Of a stretch of DNA of 64,000 nucleotides, positions 23,249 to 39,573 are shown one piece after another. The translations under genes and the position numbers were made by a program. Position 1 is the first letter of the stretch; each line of letters starts with the position of its first letter. Below the pieces are notes generated by a model. It was not told the DNA's origin and made no database searches. It saw only the letters and a program-made list of their open reading frames with translations. Source of the DNA: Candidatus Woesearchaeota archaeon (GTDB lineage: Archaea; Nanobdellota; Nanobdellia; SCGC-AAA011-G17; GW2011-AR17); NCBI GenBank assembly GCA_016235495.1, contig JACRKH010000021.1, forward strand, positions 14,725 to 78,724, in the 5' to 3' direction.

Positions 23249-23692
23249 ATGAGCTTTACATCATTCTTAGATCCCATCCTTGGTCCATTAATGGGCATAC
23301 CAGCACCATGGAACATTCTTCTCCTGAGTTTTCTTCTTACAGTAGTCATTACTTTGGTCTATAAATTTGCTACCGATCAGAAAATGATGAAAGAGCTGAA
23401 AGACGAAATAAAACAAATTCAGAAAGAAATGAAAGAATTCAAAAACTATCCTGATAAAATAATGGATCTTCAAAAGCGTGCATGGGAAAAAACAATGAAA
23501 CAATTTATGCACAGCTTGAAGCCGACATTGATAACATTCATTCCTATATTAATTATATTCGGCTGGATGAGAACTTATTATACTTCTATAGGAAACCCTC
23601 CTGTACTTTTTGGTCTTGGCTGGATATGGATATACATCGTGAGTTCAATACTCTTTAGTATTCTCTTGAGAAAATTACTCAAAGTGCATTAA
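23249..23692 (+). CDS. DUF106/EMC3/YidC-like membrane protein (a candidate archaeal Oxa1-type insertase)
   Basis: Three TM helices with a charged coiled-coil between TM1 and TM2. This gene follows secY in many archaea. Confidence 0.45.
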   Translation: MSFTSFLDPILGPLMGIPAPWNILLLSFLLTVVITLVYKFATDQKMMKELKDEIKQIQKEMKEFKNYPDKIMDLQKRAWEKTMKQFMHSLKPTLITFIPILIIFGWMRTYYTSIGNPPVLFGLGWIWIYIVSSILFSILLRKLLKVH

Positions 23693-24180
23693 GAACTAAA
23701 ACTTCCTATTTCTGCATGAAGAATATCAAAAACTTTTTTCACATCAGCTGTTTTCAATTTTACAGAATGCGTTCGAAGCCCAATATTAAAAGTACTTTCA
23801 GTATTTTCAAAAATACCAACATCCACAAACAGAGGAATACTTTCTTTATGCCCAAAAGGAGGAACAGCACCAATCTCACAGCCGGTTTTCTCCATCACTT
23901 CTTCTGCTGTAGCCATTCTGATTTTGCCTTTTGACCATCCTTTTTTTTCTGCAACAGCTTTCATATTAACTTTTTTGTCTGCAGAAACATCCACAACAAG
24001 CCAGTCATTGCCATTAGTGAGCACAATTGCTTTAATGCCTTGTTTCAGTGCAAAACCTCTCGTGCGTGCAGCATCTTCACTTGTAACAACAGCCTCATGC
24101 TCTAAATAAGTGACAGAAATTCTATATTGAGAAAAAAATGCATGTATCCCTTCAACTTCAGCGATGCCCATAGAAGACAT
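23689..24180 (-). CDS. YbaK/ProX-type aminoacyl-tRNA deacylase
   Basis: A GAVPPFGH motif. I chose the internal Met at 24180, which has a tttataat TATA box just upstream on the minus strand. Confidence 0.6.
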   Translation of the reverse strand: MSSMGIAEVEGIHAFFSQYRISVTYLEHEAVVTSEDAARTRGFALKQGIKAIVLTNGNDWLVVDVSADKKVNMKAVAEKKGWSKGKIRMATAEEVMEKTGCEIGAVPPFGHKESIPLFVDVGIFENTESTFNIGLRTHSVKLKTADVKKVFDILHAEIGSFSS

Positions 24181-24305
24181 GACTAGTACTAGAATTATAA
24201 ATCTTTCCGAGAAAGTTATGGTTCTATAAAAACTCATTAGGTTCTAATAAATACCTATTAGTAACCAAAAAGTTTATATAGCTCTTAGTAGTACCAAGTC
24301 TCAGA

Positions 24306-24896
24306 ATGAATACAAAAAAATTAGATAATGTCAAATTAATAGAGTTAAATGAAGCATATCAAAAAATACTCTACTGGTTTTTCTCCTTTCCAAATACACC
24401 TATTGGACTTAATGATCTCAGCGCAGCCACACAAATTTCTAAAACCACTGCAAAAAAGATTGTAAATAGCCTGGAAAAAGAGAGATTTTTAGATAAAAAG
24501 ATTTATGGAAAAACTTGGATTATAACTTGTAATCAAAGTCATGAGTTTAATCGTACCAAAAAAATAGTTTTTAATTTAAATATGGTTTTTGATACATACT
24601 TAGGGGGATTAAGAGAGGATATTTTAAATTTAGTAGGAAATCCTAAGGTAGCAATTCTTTTTGGAAGCTATAGAAAAGGTGATGATAATGATAAAAGTGA
24701 TATTGATATAGCTGTAGAAATAGCAGGAAATACGGATTTAAAAATAATACACTTGGGAAAAATATCCGAGTTTGGATACAGAAGGGATGTTCCAGTGAAT
24801 GTTCATATATTTTCAAGAAATAAAATAGATATTAATTTATTCTCAAATATTGCAAATGGTATTGTATTAGAAGGCTTTTTAGAGGTGAGAACATGA
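24306..24896 (+). CDS. Minimal nucleotidyltransferase (MNT) with an N-terminal wHTH: the antitoxin component of a HEPN-MNT module
   Basis: GSYRKGDDNDKSDIDIAV matches the Pol-beta NTase GS...DxD motif. It overlaps the downstream HEPN gene by 4 nt. Confidence 0.7.
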   Translation: MNTKKLDNVKLIELNEAYQKILYWFFSFPNTPIGLNDLSAATQISKTTAKKIVNSLEKERFLDKKIYGKTWIITCNQSHEFNRTKKIVFNLNMVFDTYLGGLREDILNLVGNPKVAILFGSYRKGDDNDKSDIDIAVEIAGNTDLKIIHLGKISEFGYRRDVPVNVHIFSRNKIDINLFSNIANGIVLEGFLEVRT

Positions 24897-25297
24897 GATA
24901 TAAACGTCCGGACAAAAAAAATGCTCTGAGTATATTACAAGCATCAGAAAGAGATCTAAAATACACCAATACTTTAACACTTTCAGAAGACTCAAGTTCG
25001 ACAATTATAAGAAATATTTATGAATGCTTTAGAATGTTGGGGGATTCTCTGCTGGTTGCAAAAGGGATTGAATCAGAGGATCATCTCAAGCCTATTCAAG
25101 AACTTATGAACTTAAAAGTAAAAACAGAAAGACCCTTGTTGCTCATAGACAACTTGCGGAGATTAAGGCATAATATTAATTATTATGGATATAGGCCAAG
25201 CTTAGATGAAGCCAAAGAGATAAAAGCCCTGGCAAAAAGCCTATTCGAACCATTGAAGAAGGAAGTTCTTAGAAGTATTCATAGCACTTCTGAATAG
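24893..25297 (+). CDS. HEPN-domain protein (the toxin component)
   Basis: A C-terminal LRRLRHNINYYGY, which is an R-x(n)-H HEPN-like motif followed by NxxYYG. It is paired with the MNT gene. Confidence 0.6.
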   Translation: MRYKRPDKKNALSILQASERDLKYTNTLTLSEDSSSTIIRNIYECFRMLGDSLLVAKGIESEDHLKPIQELMNLKVKTERPLLLIDNLRRLRHNINYYGYRPSLDEAKEIKALAKSLFEPLKKEVLRSIHSTSE

Positions 25298-25353
25298 TAT
25301 TTTCTTCAAAGTCGAAAGAAAGCTTTATAAAGACCTATTTTTTCTCCTTATCC

Positions 25354-25614
25354 ATGGAATTAAAGCATAAGAATCGAACTTTTCGAAGAGTGCAAGTAAA
25401 GCTCTCAAATAAGGTTGTAACACACTACAAAAAGAGAAATCCTGCAAAGGCGCAATGTGGAGAATGTGGAAAAGAGCTGCATGGTGTCCCAAGAGCAAGG
25501 GCTGTAGTGATGCAGAATATTCCTAAGACAAAGAAAAGGCCTGAAAGACCATATGGTGGTGTCCTTTGTTCTCGCTGTATGCGTAACAAAATGATTGCAA
25601 AGGCTCGAGCATAA
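25354..25614 (+). CDS. rpl34e: Ribosomal protein eL34
   Basis: A CGECGKEL...CSRC zinc ribbon and the eL34 pattern. Confidence 0.85.
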   Translation: MELKHKNRTFRRVQVKLSNKVVTHYKKRNPAKAQCGECGKELHGVPRARAVVMQNIPKTKKRPERPYGGVLCSRCMRNKMIAKARA

Positions 25615-26496: not shown

Positions 26497-29385
26497 ATGG
26501 ATGCATTCCTAGAGTTCTATTCGAGAAAAGAGATACAGGAAGCAATACTTTCTATTTGTGAAGATAGAGAAGTCGCCCCTCGATATAATCAAGGATTCGG
26601 CAGAAGGCCGGATATTATTCAGTATCCAGGGGATATTCTAGAGATGGCAAAAAAAGGTGCGACATCCTTTCACATATCTGAAGAGCGCTGGAATAGTCCT
26701 TTGGATCTCAAGCCAGGCATGGCAAAGAAAGATCTTGATGAAAATAGAAAAGGTTGGGATCTTTGCCTTCCTGATTTTGAGAAGATTCATATTATTGAAG
26801 ATGGCCACCTTAAACAGGTTCAAATTGATTATTTAAATAAATTTAAAGGCAAACAAATAGGGGAAGGGGAGTATCTTTTAAATAAAGACATAAAAATTCT
26901 AAGCCTTAACCCTAAAGATTATAAAATCCAACTTGAGAAAGTTACAAAATTCTATATACGAGAGAAAAGACCCCAAGAAAAAGTATTTAAATTAACAGTC
27001 GAAGATGGGAGAATAGCATGGGTAAGCGAAGATCATCCTTTACTGGTTTTCACAAAGGAAGGAATGAAAGAAAAAGTTGCAAAGAGAATAACTTCTGAAG
27101 ATTATCTTATTATAAGCACAAAAATCCCTTCTCAATTCAAATCCCAAGAATATAACCTATTAGATGAAATTTACAAAAAGAAGGAAAGATTTTCTTATAT
27201 GGTTGGGAAAACAATCTTAGTGAACAAATTTTTAATTAAAAACAACAAAAATAATAAGCTGCAAATAAAATCAACAATATCAAAGTATCTTGGTAAGCGG
27301 GGAATACCTATTAATTTTTTTCCTCTTTCAATAAAAAAGCAAAACCTTAGCATAGGAATGAGGCATTGTAAGAATTTTATACCTTCTAGAATAGACTTGA
27401 CGAGGGATTTTGGGTTCTTAGTAGGTATATATCTTGCTGAGGCAGCATCAGGAGGAACTCGTATAGAATTTGCATTGCATCTTAAAGAAAGAGATATAGC
27501 TGAAAGAATAATTTCGATAATTAATAAAACTTTTTCTACACATTTCCTAGCAGAATCTTGTATAGAGCAAAATCAAGAAAATGGCATTCGTGTGAGGATA
27601 AATAGCAAATTATTAGATACAATATTTGTAGACATATTGGCTCTTGGGAAATTAGCATACCACAAAAAAATTCCTTCATGGATATTCAACGCAAATACCT
27701 CTTTTATAGATGGTTTACTTGAGGGTTATTTTGTTGGAGGTGGGCATTCAAGACTAGACTCCAATGGAAAAAGCCTTACCTTTAGCGTTATAAGTGTGAG
27801 CAAGGATCTAATAGAAGGAATATCTTTATTACTCCAAATCAAAGGCATAAATTATAAGATAAGAAAAGATCTCCCTCCTCAAAAAGGAGGTAAAGGTAAG
27901 CATAAAAGGAATATCCTTGCTATTTGTGGAGAAAAAGATATATCCTTGTTATATCAATCTTGCCCAGAGATATTCTTAAGAAAAAGATTATATCTCACTA
28001 GAAAGATTATAAATCATCCTTCATTACATGAAAAGTATCCTCCATTTTTTGATAAAACTAAAGTTACCTATAAATATCTAAAAAATGAAGTTCAAAGAGT
28101 TAACTTTCTTAGAGCTATACGCACTAAGGCAAGGGTAAATGAAAAACTAGCAAAAATAGCCGCAAATTCACATCTATCTAAGATTATGAAGAGCAATGTT
28201 TTTCCCATTCGTTGTAAGAAAATTGAAGAGTTTTCCTATAAAGGGCTTCTCTATGATATCCAAACAGAAAAGAATCATAATTTTCTTCAAGGTGATGGAA
28301 TTTTTTCACATAATTGTTTAGACATAGACACCCCTTATTGGGATTATGCAAAATGGACTGCATACTACCTTGTTGAAGCCCTCAAATTTCATGATGTTAA
28401 AAGTATTTCTATAAAATTCTCTGGAGGAAAAGGCTGGCATATTCTTGTTCCCTTTGAAGCATTCCCTGATGAAGTGAATGGAATAAAAACAAAAAATCTT
28501 TTTCCTGAAGGCCCAAGAATAATTACTGCATACCTAGAAAATATGATTCGTGAAATGCTCACAAATAAAATTTTAGAGAAAGAAGACATCGCCACAATTT
28601 GCCAAAAGACAGGCAAAAAAAGAGCAGAGATAATGAAAGACAACAAATTTGATCCCTTTTCGCTCATAGAAATAGACACAGTGCTTATTTCAAACAGGCA
28701 TTTATTTCGTGCACCATTCTCCATGCATGAAAAATCAGGATTAGTTTCTATTCCCATACTTCTAAATCATATTCTCGATTTTGACAAACGAGAAGCAGAG
28801 CCAAAGAATGTAAAAAAAATTCTTCCCTTCTTGGAAAGAGAAAAAGTAAAAGGCGATGCAAAAAGCCTCATTATCCAAGCATTCGATTGGTGGGGGAAAG
28901 CCCATGCAAAGACAGGTCCAGATAGTATAGCAGCAGAAAAACAAGAATATTATCTTCCCAAGTCCGCAATAATCGAGGCCTATTTCCCTGAATGCATAAA
29001 GAAAATGCTTTCCAATAACCTCGCAGATGGAAAAAAGCGTGCATTATTTGTTTTAGTAAATTTCCTAAACCACATGGGCTGGAGAGAAGAAGATATAAAA
29101 AAGCGCCTTCTAGACTGGAATAGCAAACAGCCTAGTCCTCTACCTCCTTCCTACATTCTTGGACAGCTTTCCTGGCACAAAAAACAGAAAGAGCATATTT
29201 TGCCGCCAAACTGCTCAAATAAAGCATATTATCAGGATATGGGCCTAGCTTGTCCTCCTGCAGTCTGTGCAAGGTACAAAAACCCTGTGAATTGTGCAGT
29301 CCAAACAGAACGCAGAGCAAGAGAAGCAGAGGCTCGGCAGAAGCCCAAAAAAGAGTTGAAAAAGCCTGAAACCAAGCCTTTATAA
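26497..29385 (+). CDS. priS: DNA primase small subunit PriS interrupted by a large intein, with a Cys-rich C-terminal extension
   Basis: Extein motifs GATSFHISEERW, LCLDIDTPYWDYAKW (DxD) and FSGGKGWHILVPFEAF (SGGRGYH). The 517-aa insertion carries intein blocks. Confidence 0.8.
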   Translation: MDAFLEFYSRKEIQEAILSICEDREVAPRYNQGFGRRPDIIQYPGDILEMAKKGATSFHISEERWNSPLDLKPGMAKKDLDENRKGWDLCLPDFEKIHIIEDGHLKQVQIDYLNKFKGKQIGEGEYLLNKDIKILSLNPKDYKIQLEKVTKFYIREKRPQEKVFKLTVEDGRIAWVSEDHPLLVFTKEGMKEKVAKRITSEDYLIISTKIPSQFKSQEYNLLDEIYKKKERFSYMVGKTILVNKFLIKNNKNNKLQIKSTISKYLGKRGIPINFFPLSIKKQNLSIGMRHCKNFIPSRIDLTRDFGFLVGIYLAEAASGGTRIEFALHLKERDIAERIISIINKTFSTHFLAESCIEQNQENGIRVRINSKLLDTIFVDILALGKLAYHKKIPSWIFNANTSFIDGLLEGYFVGGGHSRLDSNGKSLTFSVISVSKDLIEGISLLLQIKGINYKIRKDLPPQKGGKGKHKRNILAICGEKDISLLYQSCPEIFLRKRLYLTRKIINHPSLHEKYPPFFDKTKVTYKYLKNEVQRVNFLRAIRTKARVNEKLAKIAANSHLSKIMKSNVFPIRCKKIEEFSYKGLLYDIQTEKNHNFLQGDGIFSHNCLDIDTPYWDYAKWTAYYLVEALKFHDVKSISIKFSGGKGWHILVPFEAFPDEVNGIKTKNLFPEGPRIITAYLENMIREMLTNKILEKEDIATICQKTGKKRAEIMKDNKFDPFSLIEIDTVLISNRHLFRAPFSMHEKSGLVSIPILLNHILDFDKREAEPKNVKKILPFLEREKVKGDAKSLIIQAFDWWGKAHAKTGPDSIAAEKQEYYLPKSAIIEAYFPECIKKMLSNNLADGKKRALFVLVNFLNHMGWREEDIKKRLLDWNSKQPSPLPPSYILGQLSWHKKQKEHILPPNCSNKAYYQDMGLACPPAVCARYKNPVNCAVQTERRAREAEARQKPKKELKKPETKPL
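26764..28314 (+). mobile_element. Intein (517 aa) with a LAGLIDADG homing-endonuclease domain, inside priS
   Basis: It starts at Cys (tgc, 26764) and ends at HN (aat, 28312-28314) followed by Cys. Block B is VSEDHPLLVF. LAGLIDADG-like motifs are LVGIYLAEAASGG and IDGLLEGYFVGGGHS. The terminal block is LLYDIQTEKNHNF...GIFSHN. Confidence 0.8.
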
Positions 29386-30603: not shown

Positions 30604-30724
30604 CTGTGAGCGGCCATAGTGGCCTGGTACCACCTGTTCCCATTTCGAACACAGAAGTGAAATAGGCCGACGTTCCGTTGCTGTACTGCATTAAATGCGG
30701 GAAACTCGGTTCGCTGCTCCACCT
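30604..30724 (+). rRNA. rrf: 5S ribosomal RNA, stand-alone
   Basis: GCGGCCATAGTGGCC...CCATTTCGAACACAGAAGTGAAATAGGCCGAC...GTACTGCATTAAATGCGGGAAACTCGG matches the 5S consensus (loop C/helix III motif, GTACTG). The 5' and 3' ends pair (gagcggc/gctgctc). A T-run terminator follows. Confidence 0.8.
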
Positions 30725-36149: not shown

Positions 36150-36275
36150 CCCCACGTAGCTTAATGGTTTGAGCACTTGGCTGTAGATAAATTCCCCTTT
36201 TGACACTGCAAAGCAGAGGATGAAATAAGGGTAGCTGAACCCGAGAGGTTCCTGGTTCGAGTCCGGGCGTGGGGA
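36150..36275 (+). tRNA. tRNA-Tyr (anticodon GTA) with a ~53-nt canonical-position intron (about 36188-36240)
   Basis: Acceptor ccccacg/cgtgggg (C1:G72, the archaeal Tyr identity pair), D-arm gctt..gagc, anticodon stem cttgg/ccgag with loop ctGTAga, T-arm cctgg-ttcgagt-ccggg, discriminator A. Confidence 0.7.
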
Positions 36276-36292
36276 CTTATTATTCTAAGAGG
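36197..36292 (+). repeat. Direct-repeat copy 1 (part of the tRNA-Tyr intron, the 3' exon and 17 nt downstream)
   Basis: About 95 bp, matching 37333-37426 with about 5 mismatches or indels. Confidence 0.8.
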
Positions 36293-36308: not shown

Positions 36309-36737
36309 CTAGAAAATCATACCCTTTAATGAAGGATAGAGCTTTTTCAGAAATGCTAAGACTTTATCTGCATATTCCTTATTGAAAATAGTCCCATAAT
36401 ATTTTATCCCATTTCTATTATATCTTAGTTCATTCATAAACCTTAATTCTGGCTCAGAAAACTGAAGAATTGTTAAATAGGAAACCTCTGCTTCATGAGA
36501 ACTCTTTGAGGCATATCCATCAAGAAGCATTTTTCCACGGATAATCTCAATAAGGATATCATAAGAAGAATCAATAATAAAATTAGGAGAGATTTTTTCT
36601 TTAGGAATTTTCTCTAAGGCTATTTCTAAGAATGCTTTCTTTTCTTGTGCCTCTTCAAGTAAAGATAAAGCTCTGGCTCTGTTTGAAGACTGTTTTGTGA
36701 CAATCCCCTCTTTTAGGAACTCCTCAAATACTTTCAT
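36309..36737 (-). CDS. HEPN-domain protein (toxin), paralogue of 24893-25297
   Basis: A C-terminal LRYNRNGIKYYG, the same R..N.YYG motif as the first HEPN. Confidence 0.6.
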   Translation of the reverse strand: MKVFEEFLKEGIVTKQSSNRARALSLLEEAQEKKAFLEIALEKIPKEKISPNFIIDSSYDILIEIIRGKMLLDGYASKSSHEAEVSYLTILQFSEPELRFMNELRYNRNGIKYYGTIFNKEYADKVLAFLKKLYPSLKGMIF

Positions 36738-37282
36738 AACTCTATTGCTCCATTAATTGTTATTCCATTAAGAATATTATTCAATAAGTGCTTGTCTATT
36801 CTTTTGAAAAAGTCATAAAAATTGATATTTATTTCTCGTTCTAATTTTTTCTCAAAAGCTTCTAAATTTATTTCTTTCTGTTTTGCTCCTATTACTGCTA
36901 TATCAATATCAGATCTTATTGTATCTTCCCCCCATGCATAAGAGCCAAACAATATAATGGTTGTACCAGGGAATTTCTTGCTCAGCTCTTCTACTAGCTT
37001 TGATTCATAAAGAAGTTTTATATTATTAGCCCTTTTTAAGCCGTGTATTAAAATATTATCTTCATTTAATGAAATGGAAAGCCTTTTTGTTTCTTTATTT
37101 TTGATGACTTTTATATAATCTTCCTTTTCTAAATTTCTTAATGCCTTTCCAATCCCTGGCTGTGAAACGTTTAATGCTACTGCTAGAGCCCTTGCTGTAA
37201 ATACCTCCCCTTTTCTTATGAAAAGAAAATTGAGTACTTCCTGTTCTAATATTGTTAACTGGAGTTTATACATAGTAACCAT
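36734..37282 (-). CDS. MNT nucleotidyltransferase with wHTH (antitoxin), paralogue of 24306-24896
   Basis: A GSYAWGEDTIRSDIDIAV motif and a 4-nt overlap with the HEPN gene. Confidence 0.7.
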   Translation of the reverse strand: MVTMYKLQLTILEQEVLNFLFIRKGEVFTARALAVALNVSQPGIGKALRNLEKEDYIKVIKNKETKRLSISLNEDNILIHGLKRANNIKLLYESKLVEELSKKFPGTTIILFGSYAWGEDTIRSDIDIAVIGAKQKEINLEAFEKKLEREININFYDFFKRIDKHLLNNILNGITINGAIEL

Positions 37283-37332
37283 AGCTTAGTAATATAATCT
37301 GTAGTTTATATACCTTTCTATGAGATTATAGC

Positions 37333-37426
37333 TCTTTTGACGCTGCAAAGCAGAGGATGAAATAAGGGTAGCTGAACCCGAGAGCTTCCTGGTTCGAGTC
37401 CTGGCGTGGGGCTTATTATTCTAAAG
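37333..37426 (+). repeat. Direct-repeat copy 2: a partial tRNA-Tyr copy (intron part plus 3' exon) lacking the 5' exon
   Basis: ttttgacgctgcaaagcagaggatgaaataagggtagctgaacccgagagcttcctggttcgagtcctggcgtggggcttattattctaa. Confidence 0.8.
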
Positions 37427-37428
37427 AA

Positions 37429-37776
37429 CTACAGCATTTTCAAATCGCCAGTAATGCTGTCAATCTTCTTCTCGCTATCCGGACCAATTGCCAAGCAGGT
37501 CACAGTTGGCTTATTGAACACAGTCTTGCCCGCATCGGTAATCAGTGCAGTGACTAAGCCAGCCTCTTCCGCCATTTTCTTGTACTTCATCATTTCTCGC
37601 AAATCAGTGACTTTCAGAGAAACTTTTTTCATGCCTTCTTTTCTCCATTCTTTCACTGCTTCTTTCGTCGACGCTAAAGTCGCTTCCACTGCAGCATGCG
37701 CCACCTGAACAGAAAGTTTCCCTTTCTCCATCTTCAAGTCCATACGCACGAGAATAACCTGCTTCATAAATATCAA
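37429..37776 (-). CDS. pth2: Peptidyl-tRNA hydrolase, archaeal type
   Basis: A KQVILVRMDLKMEKGKLSVQVAHAAV motif. Confidence 0.85.
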   Translation of the reverse strand: MIFMKQVILVRMDLKMEKGKLSVQVAHAAVEATLASTKEAVKEWRKEGMKKVSLKVTDLREMMKYKKMAEEAGLVTALITDAGKTVFNKPTVTCLAIGPDSEKKIDSITGDLKML

Positions 37777-37845: not shown

Positions 37846-39573
37846 ATGAAAAAGATTTCAGTCTTCATAATCACATGCTTCTTGCTTTCTGCAAGCTTTG
37901 CAAGTGCAAATGTACTGAGTAGCGGATGGAATTTTTTAATAACAGGATATGATGTTGTAGAGGAAAGCCCTGCGCCGAGTGGAGACACAGGAACAAGCCC
38001 TGTACCGAGTGACACGATAGCTCCACAGCCTTCTGTATCACAACCCGTTGCAGACCAACAACCCCAACAGCCAGATCAATCTCAACAGCCCCAGCAGTTT
38101 CAAGACCAAAATCAATGCCAGCCTGATCAACCATGTTTTCAAAATCAGCCTAGTCAATCCCAAGAGGGTCAACGGTTCCAGCAGCAAGATCAATCTCAAC
38201 AACCCCAGCAGTTTCAAGACCAAAGGGAATTTAATCAAGGTCAAGAGCAACTCATGCAATTTAATCAGCAAAGACAGCAGCAGCGGCAGAATTGTCCCTC
38301 TGAAGACCAAATAAATCAAATGATTTCTGGCTGTAACCAGCACGGAGGAAACTGGATAAGAAATACAGATCCAAGCGGGTGTACATTCATAGATTGTTCT
38401 TTTAGTGGTGGAAGTCAGCAAGGGCAATTCCAAGGAGCTCCGCAATTTAATCAGCAAGGCCAGTTTGCTCAGCAGCCAGCGCCAACTTGTCGTATAAATG
38501 GAGTAGAGACTCCAGGTGCATGCAGTAATTTTGGAGGAGGACAGCAGGGTCAGTTCCAAGGGGCTCCACAATTTGGCCAGCAAGATCCATTCAGTGGACA
38601 AGCATGTCAAAGCAAAGAGGAAGCAGATCAACAAGCACAAACCTGTGCACAAATAGGCGCACAGCCCATTGCCTCCCCAGGGCAGAATGGTTGTGCTCCG
38701 ATAATTACTTGTAGCCAGAGTGGAAAAGGCGGTTTAAGTTATGATCAATATCAACAAGGTCAACAAGCATTTGAGAGTGGACAAATAGATTCTGTGCAAG
38801 TTCTTGAGGCAATACTAAAAATGGATAGTTTAAAAATCCAAATAAGCAATACACAAAAACAAATGCAGGACATCGCAAATTATTATGAAAGTCAAGGTGA
38901 CTCCGCATCAGCAGCAAGCTACAACAATGCAGCAGACATATTGAGCCAAGTTGCATCAAAGATAGATGAACAGAAGCAAGTTCTGAAAGATGCAGTTTCT
39001 GCAGGGACATTGGATTATGAAACCATTTTCCAAATCAGGTCAGACTTACAATACTCTGTTGATGAACTTATGAACCAAGTAATAAGTGCACTTCTCGGCG
39101 TAGAATACACGGGAATAAGTGGGCAGGCAGGAGAGCTTGAATGTGGCAGCAATGGACTCTGCTTCCAGAATGATTTCAGAGAATGTGCAGCAGGTGCAAC
39201 CTTTAGTCCAGAATCAGGCATATCAATAACTATTTCCGGAGTAGGAAGTGATGATAGCTGTGGATTGCAGGTTTCTGGGCCATTTGGTCAAGCAACCTGT
39301 AATGTCCCTAATTACAGATTCGCACAGTTAAGCAAAGAGGCAATCATGCCCTACTGTGAAGGTTTGCCGGACATGAGTCAAGGACAAGACCAAAATCCTA
39401 GCGAGAATTTTCAAGAACAAGATTCATTCCAGCAGCAAGCTGAAGGAGTAGAGCCTGTAGAGCCTGTAGAACCAATACAGCCAGTAGAACCAGCACCACA
39501 GCCAGCAGAATCCATCTCCCAGGAGCCTACATCAACGCCAGCCCCTGAAGAAACAACACAAGGAGGAGCATAA
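37846..39573 (+). CDS. Secreted Gln/Pro-rich repeat protein with a Cys-containing C-terminal domain and a PVEP-repeat tail
   Basis: A signal peptide, repeated DQSQQPQQFQDQ and GGxQQGQFQGAPQF units, and PVEPVEPVEPIQPVEP at the C-terminus. Confidence 0.55.
   Translation: MKKISVFIITCFLLSASFASANVLSSGWNFLITGYDVVEESPAPSGDTGTSPVPSDTIAPQPSVSQPVADQQPQQPDQSQQPQQFQDQNQCQPDQPCFQNQPSQSQEGQRFQQQDQSQQPQQFQDQREFNQGQEQLMQFNQQRQQQRQNCPSEDQINQMISGCNQHGGNWIRNTDPSGCTFIDCSFSGGSQQGQFQGAPQFNQQGQFAQQPAPTCRINGVETPGACSNFGGGQQGQFQGAPQFGQQDPFSGQACQSKEEADQQAQTCAQIGAQPIASPGQNGCAPIITCSQSGKGGLSYDQYQQGQQAFESGQIDSVQVLEAILKMDSLKIQISNTQKQMQDIANYYESQGDSASAASYNNAADILSQVASKIDEQKQVLKDAVSAGTLDYETIFQIRSDLQYSVDELMNQVISALLGVEYTGISGQAGELECGSNGLCFQNDFRECAAGATFSPESGISITISGVGSDDSCGLQVSGPFGQATCNVPNYRFAQLSKEAIMPYCEGLPDMSQGQDQNPSENFQEQDSFQQQAEGVEPVEPVEPIQPVEPAPQPAESISQEPTSTPAPEETTQGGA

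Follow-up and report, generated by a model that had tools for sequence, protein, structure and literature searches.

Class II HEPN/minimal nucleotidyltransferase (MNT) modules, as classified by Yao et al., combine an MNT carrying a GSX10DXD motif with a HEPN protein that has a conserved Tyr and no RX4H motif, and have had no biochemical study (PMC7641770). AF0298-like HEPN-T proteins lack the His of the motif, and an alternative active site has been proposed for them that is completed by a conserved His from an insert between helices 2 and 3 (PMC3710099). The candidate defence system PDC-M05, which is enriched in archaea and itself uncharacterised (PMC12988326), consists of a nucleotidyltransferase of ~200 aa and a HEPN protein of ~147 aa. 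A DPANN protein cluster, cls.004259 (NEQ050), has an MNT fused to a HEPN domain and is found "typically in house-keeping context" (Makarova et al. 2019, PMC6393860), and both the housekeeping contexts and the unusual conservation of DPANN MNT-HEPN genes are already known from that work. Here we analyze two gene pairs in a 64-kb stretch of DNA from a Candidatus Woesearchaeota (DPANN) archaeon (hereafter the window), each coding for an MNT with an N-terminal winged helix-turn-helix (wHTH) domain and for a HEPN protein. With a probability of about 60%, we read both loci as inserted cassettes of ~1.1 kb that belong to Class II HEPN/MNT (PDC-M05), are toxin-antitoxin (TA)-like or defence-like, are abundant in DPANN, and act by the mechanism proposed below.

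The genes of the two pairs, in positions of the window, are as follows.
24306-24896, plus strand: MNT1, 196 aa, an N-terminal winged helix (~aa 16-75), a long helix and a minimal nucleotidyltransferase domain
24893-25297, plus strand: HEPN1, 134 aa, a four-helix HEPN domain of the AF0298/UPF0332 (HEPN-T, Class II) type
36734-37282, minus strand: MNT2, 182 aa, a MarR-like wHTH and a minimal nucleotidyltransferase domain, second subfamily
36309-36737, minus strand: HEPN2, 142 aa, the HEPN partner of the second subfamily

An earlier sequence-only reading of the window had given both pairs the same architecture, a wHTH-MNT with GSX10DXD whose gene overlaps that of a HEPN protein by 4 nt, and this was confirmed: the overlap is ATGA in both pairs. 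MNT1 and MNT2 pass the Pfam thresholds for NTP_transf_2 (5e-11 for MNT2) and Polbeta, and both have N-terminal wHTH matches (a sub-threshold MarR_2 match in MNT2). The GSX10DXD catalytic segment is FGSYRKGDDNDKSDIDIAV in MNT1 and FGSYAWGEDTIRSDIDIAV in MNT2. Its residues, G120-S121, ten residues and D132-I-D134 in MNT1 with GSYAWGEDTIRSDID as the MNT2 counterpart, are invariant across 26 homologues and align to those of the AMPylating antitoxin MntA (5yep). The C-terminal motifs of the HEPN proteins are LRRLRHNINYYG (HEPN1) and LRYNRNGIKYYG (HEPN2).

The PF01909 MNTs with GSX10DXD adjoin HEPN proteins that fall below the PF05168 (HEPN) threshold, in the case of HEPN1 (17.2 bits, cut-off 22), or escape Pfam, in the case of HEPN2, which had no Pfam match. 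Neither HEPN matched PF01934 (DUF86) or PF08780 at E ≤0.1, and a sequence search of the PDB with the HEPN1-family profile found nothing. A structure model of HEPN1 (predicted local distance difference test score, pLDDT, of 93) is clearly a HEPN domain: its top Foldseek matches are HEPN proteins, with further structural matches to the sacsin HEPN domain, AMPylated HEPN toxins, HepT and the C-terminal domain of kanamycin nucleotidyltransferase. Invariant or near-invariant in the HEPN1 family are R40, E44, R47, D63-H64, R89, R92, H93, N96, Y97, Y98, G99 and Y100, the last part of which forms the motif L-R89-R-L-R92-H-N-I-N-Y97-Y98-G-Y100 (consensus LRRLRHNINYYGY, with spacings R89-x3-H93 and R92-x4-Y97). 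R92 and Y97 do not vary; Y98 and Y100 (96-100%) and H64 (97-100%) vary little or not at all, and H64 lies between the helices at 32-57 and 65-72. HEPN2 keeps H81, aligned with H64 of HEPN1, and R105-x2-R108-x4-Y113-Y114-G115. H93 is replaced by N in the HEPN2 subfamily and in that of a third module, at locus L088 (handles with L denote loci retrieved from other genomes). The residues that survive across the three available HEPN subfamilies are the His after helix 2 and R-x2-R-x4-Y-Y-G.

These features set the pairs apart from one group of described systems and bring them close to others. Like the type VII HepT/MntA systems (Class I HEPN/MNT, in which a growth-inhibiting RNase toxin is neutralised by AMPylation; Shewanella SO_3166/SO_3165, Aphanizomenon HEPN/MNT), they have an MNT with GSX10DXD; in contrast to them, the DPANN HEPN proteins lack RX4HXY, and MntA has no wHTH. 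A canonical HepT with Rx4-6H was ruled out by the family alignments, and the NCBIfam MntA_antitoxin model scores the two MNTs at 32-35 bits against a cut-off of 60. Because the tests for RX4HXY and for the Pfam families fail, the modules are not HepT/MntA sensu stricto. With Class II HEPN/MNT they share the upstream MNT with GSX10DXD, the overlapping genes, a HEPN Tyr near an Arg without RX4H (Y97/Y98/Y100 in the HEPN1 family, with Y113/Y114 kept in the HEPN2 family) and the archaea-wide occurrence; they differ in the N-terminal wHTH on the MNT, in HEPN proteins that PF05168 scores below threshold or misses, and in being DPANN-specific. Like AF0298 (PDB 2hsb, UPF0332), they keep the motif Arg (R92) and an alternative His between helices 2 and 3 (H64), and they differ from it by a sequence identity of only 16% and by the invariant R-x2-R-x4-Y-Y-G(-Y) that the DPANN families add. 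Both components of PDC-M05 are matched by both pairs, modestly: the PADLOC profile PDC-M05A, which also spans the wHTH region, gives 6e-10 for MNT1 and 1e-13 for MNT2, and PDC-M05B gives 4e-5 for HEPN1 and 9e-3 for HEPN2, so that both profiles are matched by adjacent genes; these profiles carry no curated cut-offs. Compared by description, cls.004259 (NEQ050) is likewise DPANN-only, unusually conserved and found beside housekeeping genes, and differs in being one fused protein rather than two genes and a wHTH. By architecture and motifs, the modules are thus assignable to Class II HEPN/MNT (PDC-M05) with an HEPN of the AF0298 type. The naming of a TA family in the sequence-only reading holds to the extent that the pairs are TA-like. 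Since the HEPN proteins lack Rx4-6H and their class is without biochemistry, we infer toxin activity for these AF0298-like HEPN-T, Class II partners rather than regard it as established.

The two pairs had been described as duplicated, and the pairwise alignments proposed for that claim are significant. MNT1 and MNT2 are 29% identical over 178 aa (E 1e-12), HEPN1 and HEPN2 are 31% identical over the C-terminal 49 aa (E 2e-4), and the two HEPN family profiles align over 121 columns with the key residues in register (hhalign, probability 91%, E 1e-6). The similarity between the pairs exceeds chance but is distant. The MNT1 family has 1,209 clusters (the best 120 of the 1,209 at 59-84% identity), the HEPN1 family 1,327, and the MNT2 family 848, with the matches listed 53-90% identical and mostly of a fixed 182 aa; the MNT1, HEPN1 and MNT2 families are almost entirely DPANN. 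Paralogy thus stands, and a recent duplication of one pair into the other is ruled out by the 29% MNT identity and a family of more than 800 members for each. From these identities and the large family of each, the pairs are best described as two old, separately conserved DPANN subfamilies sharing one architecture.

We surveyed one genome per GTDB species and obtained 80 loci with MNT1 orthologues. HEPN1 lies directly 3′ of MNT1 in 79 of the 80, and the 4-nt overlap is kept in 60 of 77 orthologous MNT1-HEPN1 pairs. Across the same 80 loci the module has no conserved neighbour gene, and SecY/spc-type genes adjoin MNT1 in none; at a single locus (L071), eL34, eL14, PfdA and PriS lie ~5 kb off on the opposite strand. 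The closest MNT1 homologue outside the ribosomal-protein site (75% identical; L132, 81-2433) adjoins a ParE-toxin gene that has a small upstream open reading frame (ORF), with a 2′-5′ RNA-ligase-like gene nearby, a TA-rich neighbourhood. At L135-L138 (e.g. L135, 5001-7293), an MNT2-family MNT, a HEPN and enolase are strung together with a 4-nt overlap and followed by a RelA/SpoT-like gene, which is another housekeeping context for the module.

Pair 2, which the sequence-only reading had placed in a cassette associated with tRNA-Tyr, is an insertion. The tRNA-Tyr gene beside it is present and contains an intron.
36150-36275, plus strand: intact, intron-containing tRNA-Tyr(GTA) gene (Rfam tRNA, 47.6 bits; 53-nt intron by ARAGORN)
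36197-36288, plus strand: left (attL-like) repeat copy, running from within the tRNA intron through the 3′ exon to 13 nt beyond it
37334-37424, plus strand: right (attR-like) repeat copy, an orphan 3′ fragment of tRNA-Tyr without a 5′ exon

HEPN2-MNT2 is bracketed exactly by two direct copies of a 92-nt repeat that are 96% identical (one block of 78 nt, likewise 96% identical, plus one of 17 nt) and 1137 bp apart, and no other such direct repeat was found in the window. The 1,045 bp between the copies hold only HEPN2, MNT2, their promoter and a short hairpin, and no integrase. The right copy, in which a mismatch disrupts the T-stem, abuts the stop codon of Pth2 (37429-37776, minus strand). A relative with SecY 76% identical (L123) shares the block Rad50, g487, Pth2, g575 and GTPase and has an empty site, with tRNA-Tyr followed directly by Pth2 and no MNT or HEPN gene between them. 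The L123 tRNA-Tyr gene was identified by eye and by alignment, Rfam having missed it at the gathering threshold, and in this alignment the right copy occupies the ancestral position of the tRNA 3′ end next to Pth2. The tRNA/att sequence of the window had no blastn match in any other retrieved locus. A locus from another sample (L139, MNT2 90% identical) has the same junction of tRNA fragment and MNT2 promoter, with different DNA beyond it. On entering the tRNA-Tyr gene, pair 2 left a duplication of 92 nt of its 3′ part. The arrangement resembles tRNA-integrated elements and their integrase-less remnants (tandem accretion, and remnants like cis-mobilizable elements, CIMEs) in its flanking tRNA 3′ repeats, its intact and orphan copies and the empty site; it differs in an element of only ~1.05 kb with two genes and no integrase, and in a repeat that starts inside the tRNA intron.

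Pair 1 lies in the gene order SecY, DUF106/EMC3-like membrane protein, a convergent YbaK-type gene, pair 1, eL34, eL14 and prefoldin, and Pfam confirmed the neighbours that had been named for it (SecY, DUF106, YbaK, eL34).
23689-24237, minus strand: YbaK-type aminoacyl-tRNA editing-domain gene, convergent with DUF106 (Pfam tRNA_edit, E 5e-26), which belongs to the insert that separates DUF106 and eL34
25317-25332, plus strand: promoter of eL34, with a transcription factor B recognition element (BRE) and TATA box, AGAAAGCTTTATAAAG, intact downstream of the insertion; the eL34 ATG is at 25354

We compared this order with 49 metagenomic loci retrieved using the window SecY. The closest relatives (SecY 74-83% identical) have the order SecY, DUF106, eL34, eL14, PfdA, PriS, and in seven of them (L082, L085, L093, L094, L095, L096 and L123) DUF106 is followed directly by eL34 across a gap of ~40-140 bp. 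More distant relatives (SecY 55-67%) also have no gene between DUF106 and eL34, and the order with pair 1 is thus not ancestral. Several relatives carry other insertions at this junction: a 161-aa ORF, a YbaK gene and a 277-aa ORF (L083/L084), a small acetyltransferase-like gene (L086, L087, L089, L090), other ORFs (L091, L092), and that acetyltransferase-like gene followed by the third wHTH-MNT/HEPN module, its MNT 35% identical to MNT2 (L088, whose contig stops 133 nt past the HEPN gene, before any eL34). The DUF106-eL34 junction is a recurrent insertion hotspot for unrelated genes.

The sequence-only reading had put pair 1 inside the ribosomal-protein operon, in the slot where many archaea carry adk and cmk. 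Neither the position inside the operon nor the link to adk and cmk was supported. A BRE/TATA element (GAAAGCTTTATAAA) lies 27-30 nt 5′ of the eL34 ATG in most relatives, most clearly at SecY identities of at least 74%, and is present with or without an insertion (insert-free examples are L082, L096, L093, L094 and L123). Because eL34 keeps its own promoter with or without an insert, the junction is a transcription-unit boundary, and pair 1 lies between an spc-type unit ending in SecY-DUF106 and a separately promoted eL34-eL14 unit. As had been noted, adk and cmk are absent from the window, in which we found no adk- or cmk-like P-loop ORF; they are also missing from the DUF106-eL34 slot throughout the sampled lineage, whether or not there is an insert. 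Since relatives without the insert lack both genes there, the module displaced neither, and adk/cmk displacement by pair 1 is ruled out.

Only one other genome, from a different sample and an independent assembly (L131), has MNT1-HEPN1 at the DUF106-eL34 site. The same insertion in a collinear, independently assembled locus (88.9% nucleotide identity) is therefore real and not an assembly artefact. Between the window and L131, protein identity is 92-99% for the flanking genes, 80% for YbaK, 84% for MNT1 and 92% for HEPN1; synonymous divergence (dS) is 0.59-0.66 in the cassette and 0.48-0.61 in the flanks, and the ratio of nonsynonymous to synonymous divergence (dN/dS) reaches 0.15 in MNT1 and 0.07 in HEPN1, compared with 0.03-0.05 in the neighbours. 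These values indicate that the insertion of pair 1 predates the split of the window and L131 lineages and was inherited vertically under purifying selection. MNT1 homologues ~75% identical are found at other genomic sites (L002, L003, L132). YbaK orthologues occur at the junction in L083/L084 (71% identical) and in L131 (80%). The YbaK ORF of the window as listed has 182 aa, and its orthologues are called at 141 aa (L131) and 161 aa (L083). The true start is probably an internal Met near 24168, the listed N-terminus being over-extended, and the divergent promoter region would then be shared with MNT1.

Upstream of MNT1 we identified a promoter and a candidate operator.
24220-24296, plus strand: promoter and candidate operator of pair 1, with the TATA box TTTATATA at 24273-24280, 33 nt before the ATG
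24220-24225, 24240-24245, 24261-24266 and 24292-24296: GGTTCT / GTAACC / GTACC half-sites flanking the TATA box

Of 52 loci whose sequence upstream of the MNT1 orthologue was compared, 35 have a TATA box 29-30 nt ahead of the ATG, and 30 have GGTWAC at most 20 nt upstream of the TATA box, against a background of 0.4%. The consensus, ...TGGTaaCcaAAAag|TTTATATAGTt....a.gTtACcA, has GGTWAC/GTWACC half-sites flanking the TATA box and a degenerate second unit further upstream. These features suggest that the MNT1 promoter would be leaderless and autoregulated, bound by the fused wHTH domain. MNT2 has its own BRE/TATA promoter on the minus strand (~37304-37319).

Flanking repeats are not confined to pair 2. 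Of 86 modules, 6 are flanked by exact direct repeats of at least 18 nt, compared to 14 of 2941 random control segments of 1,050 bp from the same loci; once extended, the repeats at the modules span 29-112 nt. Four loci each have a single MNT1-HEPN1 module between direct repeats that are particular to the genome (29-67 nt long, 1.1-1.3 kb apart), at the following positions.
L013: 2779 and 3963
L019: 3499 and 4754
L050: 1181 and 2463
L017: 5706 and 6821

At least three of the repeats are the 3′ ends of upstream genes or ORFs: that of L019 corresponds to the final 45 nt, stop codon included, of a 187-aa helix-hairpin-helix (HhH)-glycosylase-like gene lying upstream, that of L069 is the end of a 67-aa ORF, and that of L026 is the end of an ORF for a transmembrane-anchored protein. 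Two loci hold arrays. In L026 (8563-11115) a 112-nt repeat is present three times, separating RelE-like and HicB/HicA genes from MNT1-HEPN1, with a VapBC-like pair (ribbon-helix-helix, RHH, and PIN) after them; in L069 (929-5117) the four copies of a repeat set apart a 234-aa ORF, MNT1-HEPN1 and a RelE-like gene, and Fic follows. The att-like repeats and empty site of pair 2 and the empty sites of pair 1 in close relatives bear out the earlier suggestion of mobility: the two pairs are probably mobile. The flanking repeats could reflect larger integrated elements that have decayed to their addictive TA genes, or genuine cassette-level mobility. In one rather doubtful version of the latter, the wHTH-MNT/HEPN pairs and the neighbouring RelE-, HicAB- and VapBC-like and Fic genes would be cassettes of ~1.1 kb that insert at the 3′ ends of tRNA and protein-coding genes, a duplication of 30-110 nt regenerating the target, with arrays split by copies of the target end and with neither attC hairpins nor a linked integrase. 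If true, this would be a mechanism of cassette capture and mobility distinct from integrons and from integrase-bearing islands, which maybe acts in trans or by a new recombination route.

In the mechanism that we propose, each module would be transcribed from its own BRE/TATA promoter ~30 nt from the ATG, a conserved arrangement, into a leaderless bicistronic mRNA. The wHTH fused to the MNT would bind the GGTWAC/GTWACC half-sites around the TATA box and autorepress the module, as the conservation of these sites suggests, and the ATGA overlap, kept in most pairs, may couple translation of the MNT and HEPN genes. By analogy with HepT/MntA, the GSX10DXD nucleotidyltransferase would transfer a nucleoside monophosphate to (NMPylate) Y97, Y98 or Y100 near R92 and so keep the HEPN inactive, while the unmodified HEPN may be an RNase acting through an alternative AF0298-type site of R92 and H64, the latter from the helix 2-3 insert. 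Both copies are insertions: pair 2 in the tRNA-Tyr gene with duplication of the 92 nt, and pair 1 on the far side of a YbaK gene that had been inserted before it, between the two transcription units, where it disturbs neither.

Several observations weigh against reading the two pairs as mobile TA-like cassettes of this kind. There is no exact flanking repeat of at least 14 nt at 76 of the 86 modules and no flanking direct repeat was found around pair 1; by eye, the 3′ end of DUF106 resembles the stretch that precedes the eL34 promoter over 7 nt, which was judged too short. In the window and six loci, no tyrosine-recombinase/IntI-like ORF came up in a crude motif screen, and no MNT1 relative was found on IMG/VR viral contigs, on which basis viral carriage was rejected. 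The Rx4-6H motif is absent from the HEPN1 and HEPN2 family alignments, the geometry of the R92/H64/Tyr site is deduced from sequence positions and secondary structure, and toxicity, RNase activity and NMPylation have never been shown for a Class II or AF0298-like HEPN. The modules are also far more conserved than is usual for TA genes (50-84% identity over more than 140 species, with low dN/dS), which could point to a housekeeping role.

This last point leads to the alternative that survives best, in which the genes are no TA module and instead code for a conserved two-subunit nucleotidyltransferase with a cellular role, the MNT being catalytic, the HEPN binding the substrate as in kanamycin nucleotidyltransferase, and the wHTH serving only as regulator. 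HEPN proteins without Rx4-6H, very strong conservation under purifying selection, and modules of the MNT2 type strung to enolase by a 4-nt overlap (L135-L138) speak for such an enzyme, and Makarova et al. (2019, PMC6393860) suggested an important role for the DPANN MNT-HEPN cluster that they noted as unusually conserved and located among housekeeping genes. We nevertheless consider it unlikely. The genomic position of the module is not kept across the 80 species, several paralogous modules are possible per genome, and an autoregulatory operator, as predicted here, is what TA loci typically have. Empty sites occur in close relatives; those relatives that are empty at both positions show that neither site is required, with copies elsewhere in those genomes possible. 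The att-like flanking repeats, and the arrays held in common with bona fide TA genes, also argue against a two-subunit housekeeping enzyme.

Somewhat less likely still is that the modules are primarily antiviral abortive-infection systems (PDC-M05), located simply where a streamlined genome tolerates small defence cassettes. The PADLOC matches to PDC-M05A/B point this way, yet they are modest (E 6e-10 to 9e-3) and without a curated threshold. PDC-M05 is enriched in archaea and DPANN genomes are enriched in small defence candidates, while an antiviral role of PDC-M05 is unconfirmed (PMC12988326). Fic, RelE-like, HicAB-like and VapBC-like (RHH and PIN) genes among the neighbours also suit a defence function, which is compatible with the TA mechanism and differs from it mainly in the biological role assumed. 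A third alternative, that the flanking repeats are attC sites and the modules gene cassettes of integrons or of clusters of attC sites lacking integrases (CALINs), is very improbable, for although archaeal integrons and CALINs have been reported in GTDB Nanoarchaeota and the L026 and L069 arrays have cassette-sized spacing, single-stranded DNA folds disfavour it (z-scores -1.7 to +1.9 against shuffles, no repeat forming a long imperfect hairpin or an end-to-end stem), the repeats are 3′ ends of target genes (tRNA-Tyr, the glycosylase-like ORF, small ORFs ending in stop codons), consistent R″/R′ core sites were not seen by eye, and the crude motif screen saw no IntI-like ORF.

Class II HEPN/MNT (PDC-M05) is among the commonest archaeal two-gene modules and yet is without biochemistry. 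The families described here offer sharply defined residues for testing (HEPN H64, R89, R92, Y97, Y98 and Y100; MNT G120, S121, D132 and D134), and together with the conserved candidate operator these make the Class II mechanism directly testable. The location of pair 1 beside ribosomal-protein genes is benign, an inter-unit hotspot with no operon disrupted, and in this respect the finding is real but largely ordinary. Mobility is the more useful lead: pair 2 has an att-like duplication and an empty site, the L026 and L069 arrays are bracketed likewise, and these three provide concrete before-and-after junctions for the movement of small TA cassettes in streamlined DPANN genomes.

Some further features were observed in the window and its relatives. 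A more distant relative (L100, 11383-18521) has a 7-kb insertion between SecY and DUF106, containing an ABC transporter, a glutathione S-transferase (GST)-like gene and a pair of genes for 207-aa and 192-aa proteins, the former with a nucleotidyltransferase-like GG...DIDI motif. The 962-aa primase small-subunit gene at 26497-29385 of the window has an intein in which Pfam recognizes a LAGLIDADG homing-endonuclease domain. In relatives such as L082 and L123 the match covers the exteins alone, in two segments that abut, and the intein is apparently missing there. A stand-alone 5S rRNA gene (30606-30722; Rfam, 67 bits) lies between a Cas4-like/PD-(D/E)XK gene and Mre11-Rad50, distant from any 16S or 23S gene in the window. 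Beyond pair 2, positions 37846-39573 code for a 575-aa secreted-looking protein with long Gln/Pro-rich low-complexity repeats, and 47-nt tandem DNA repeats are present at 38064-38224.

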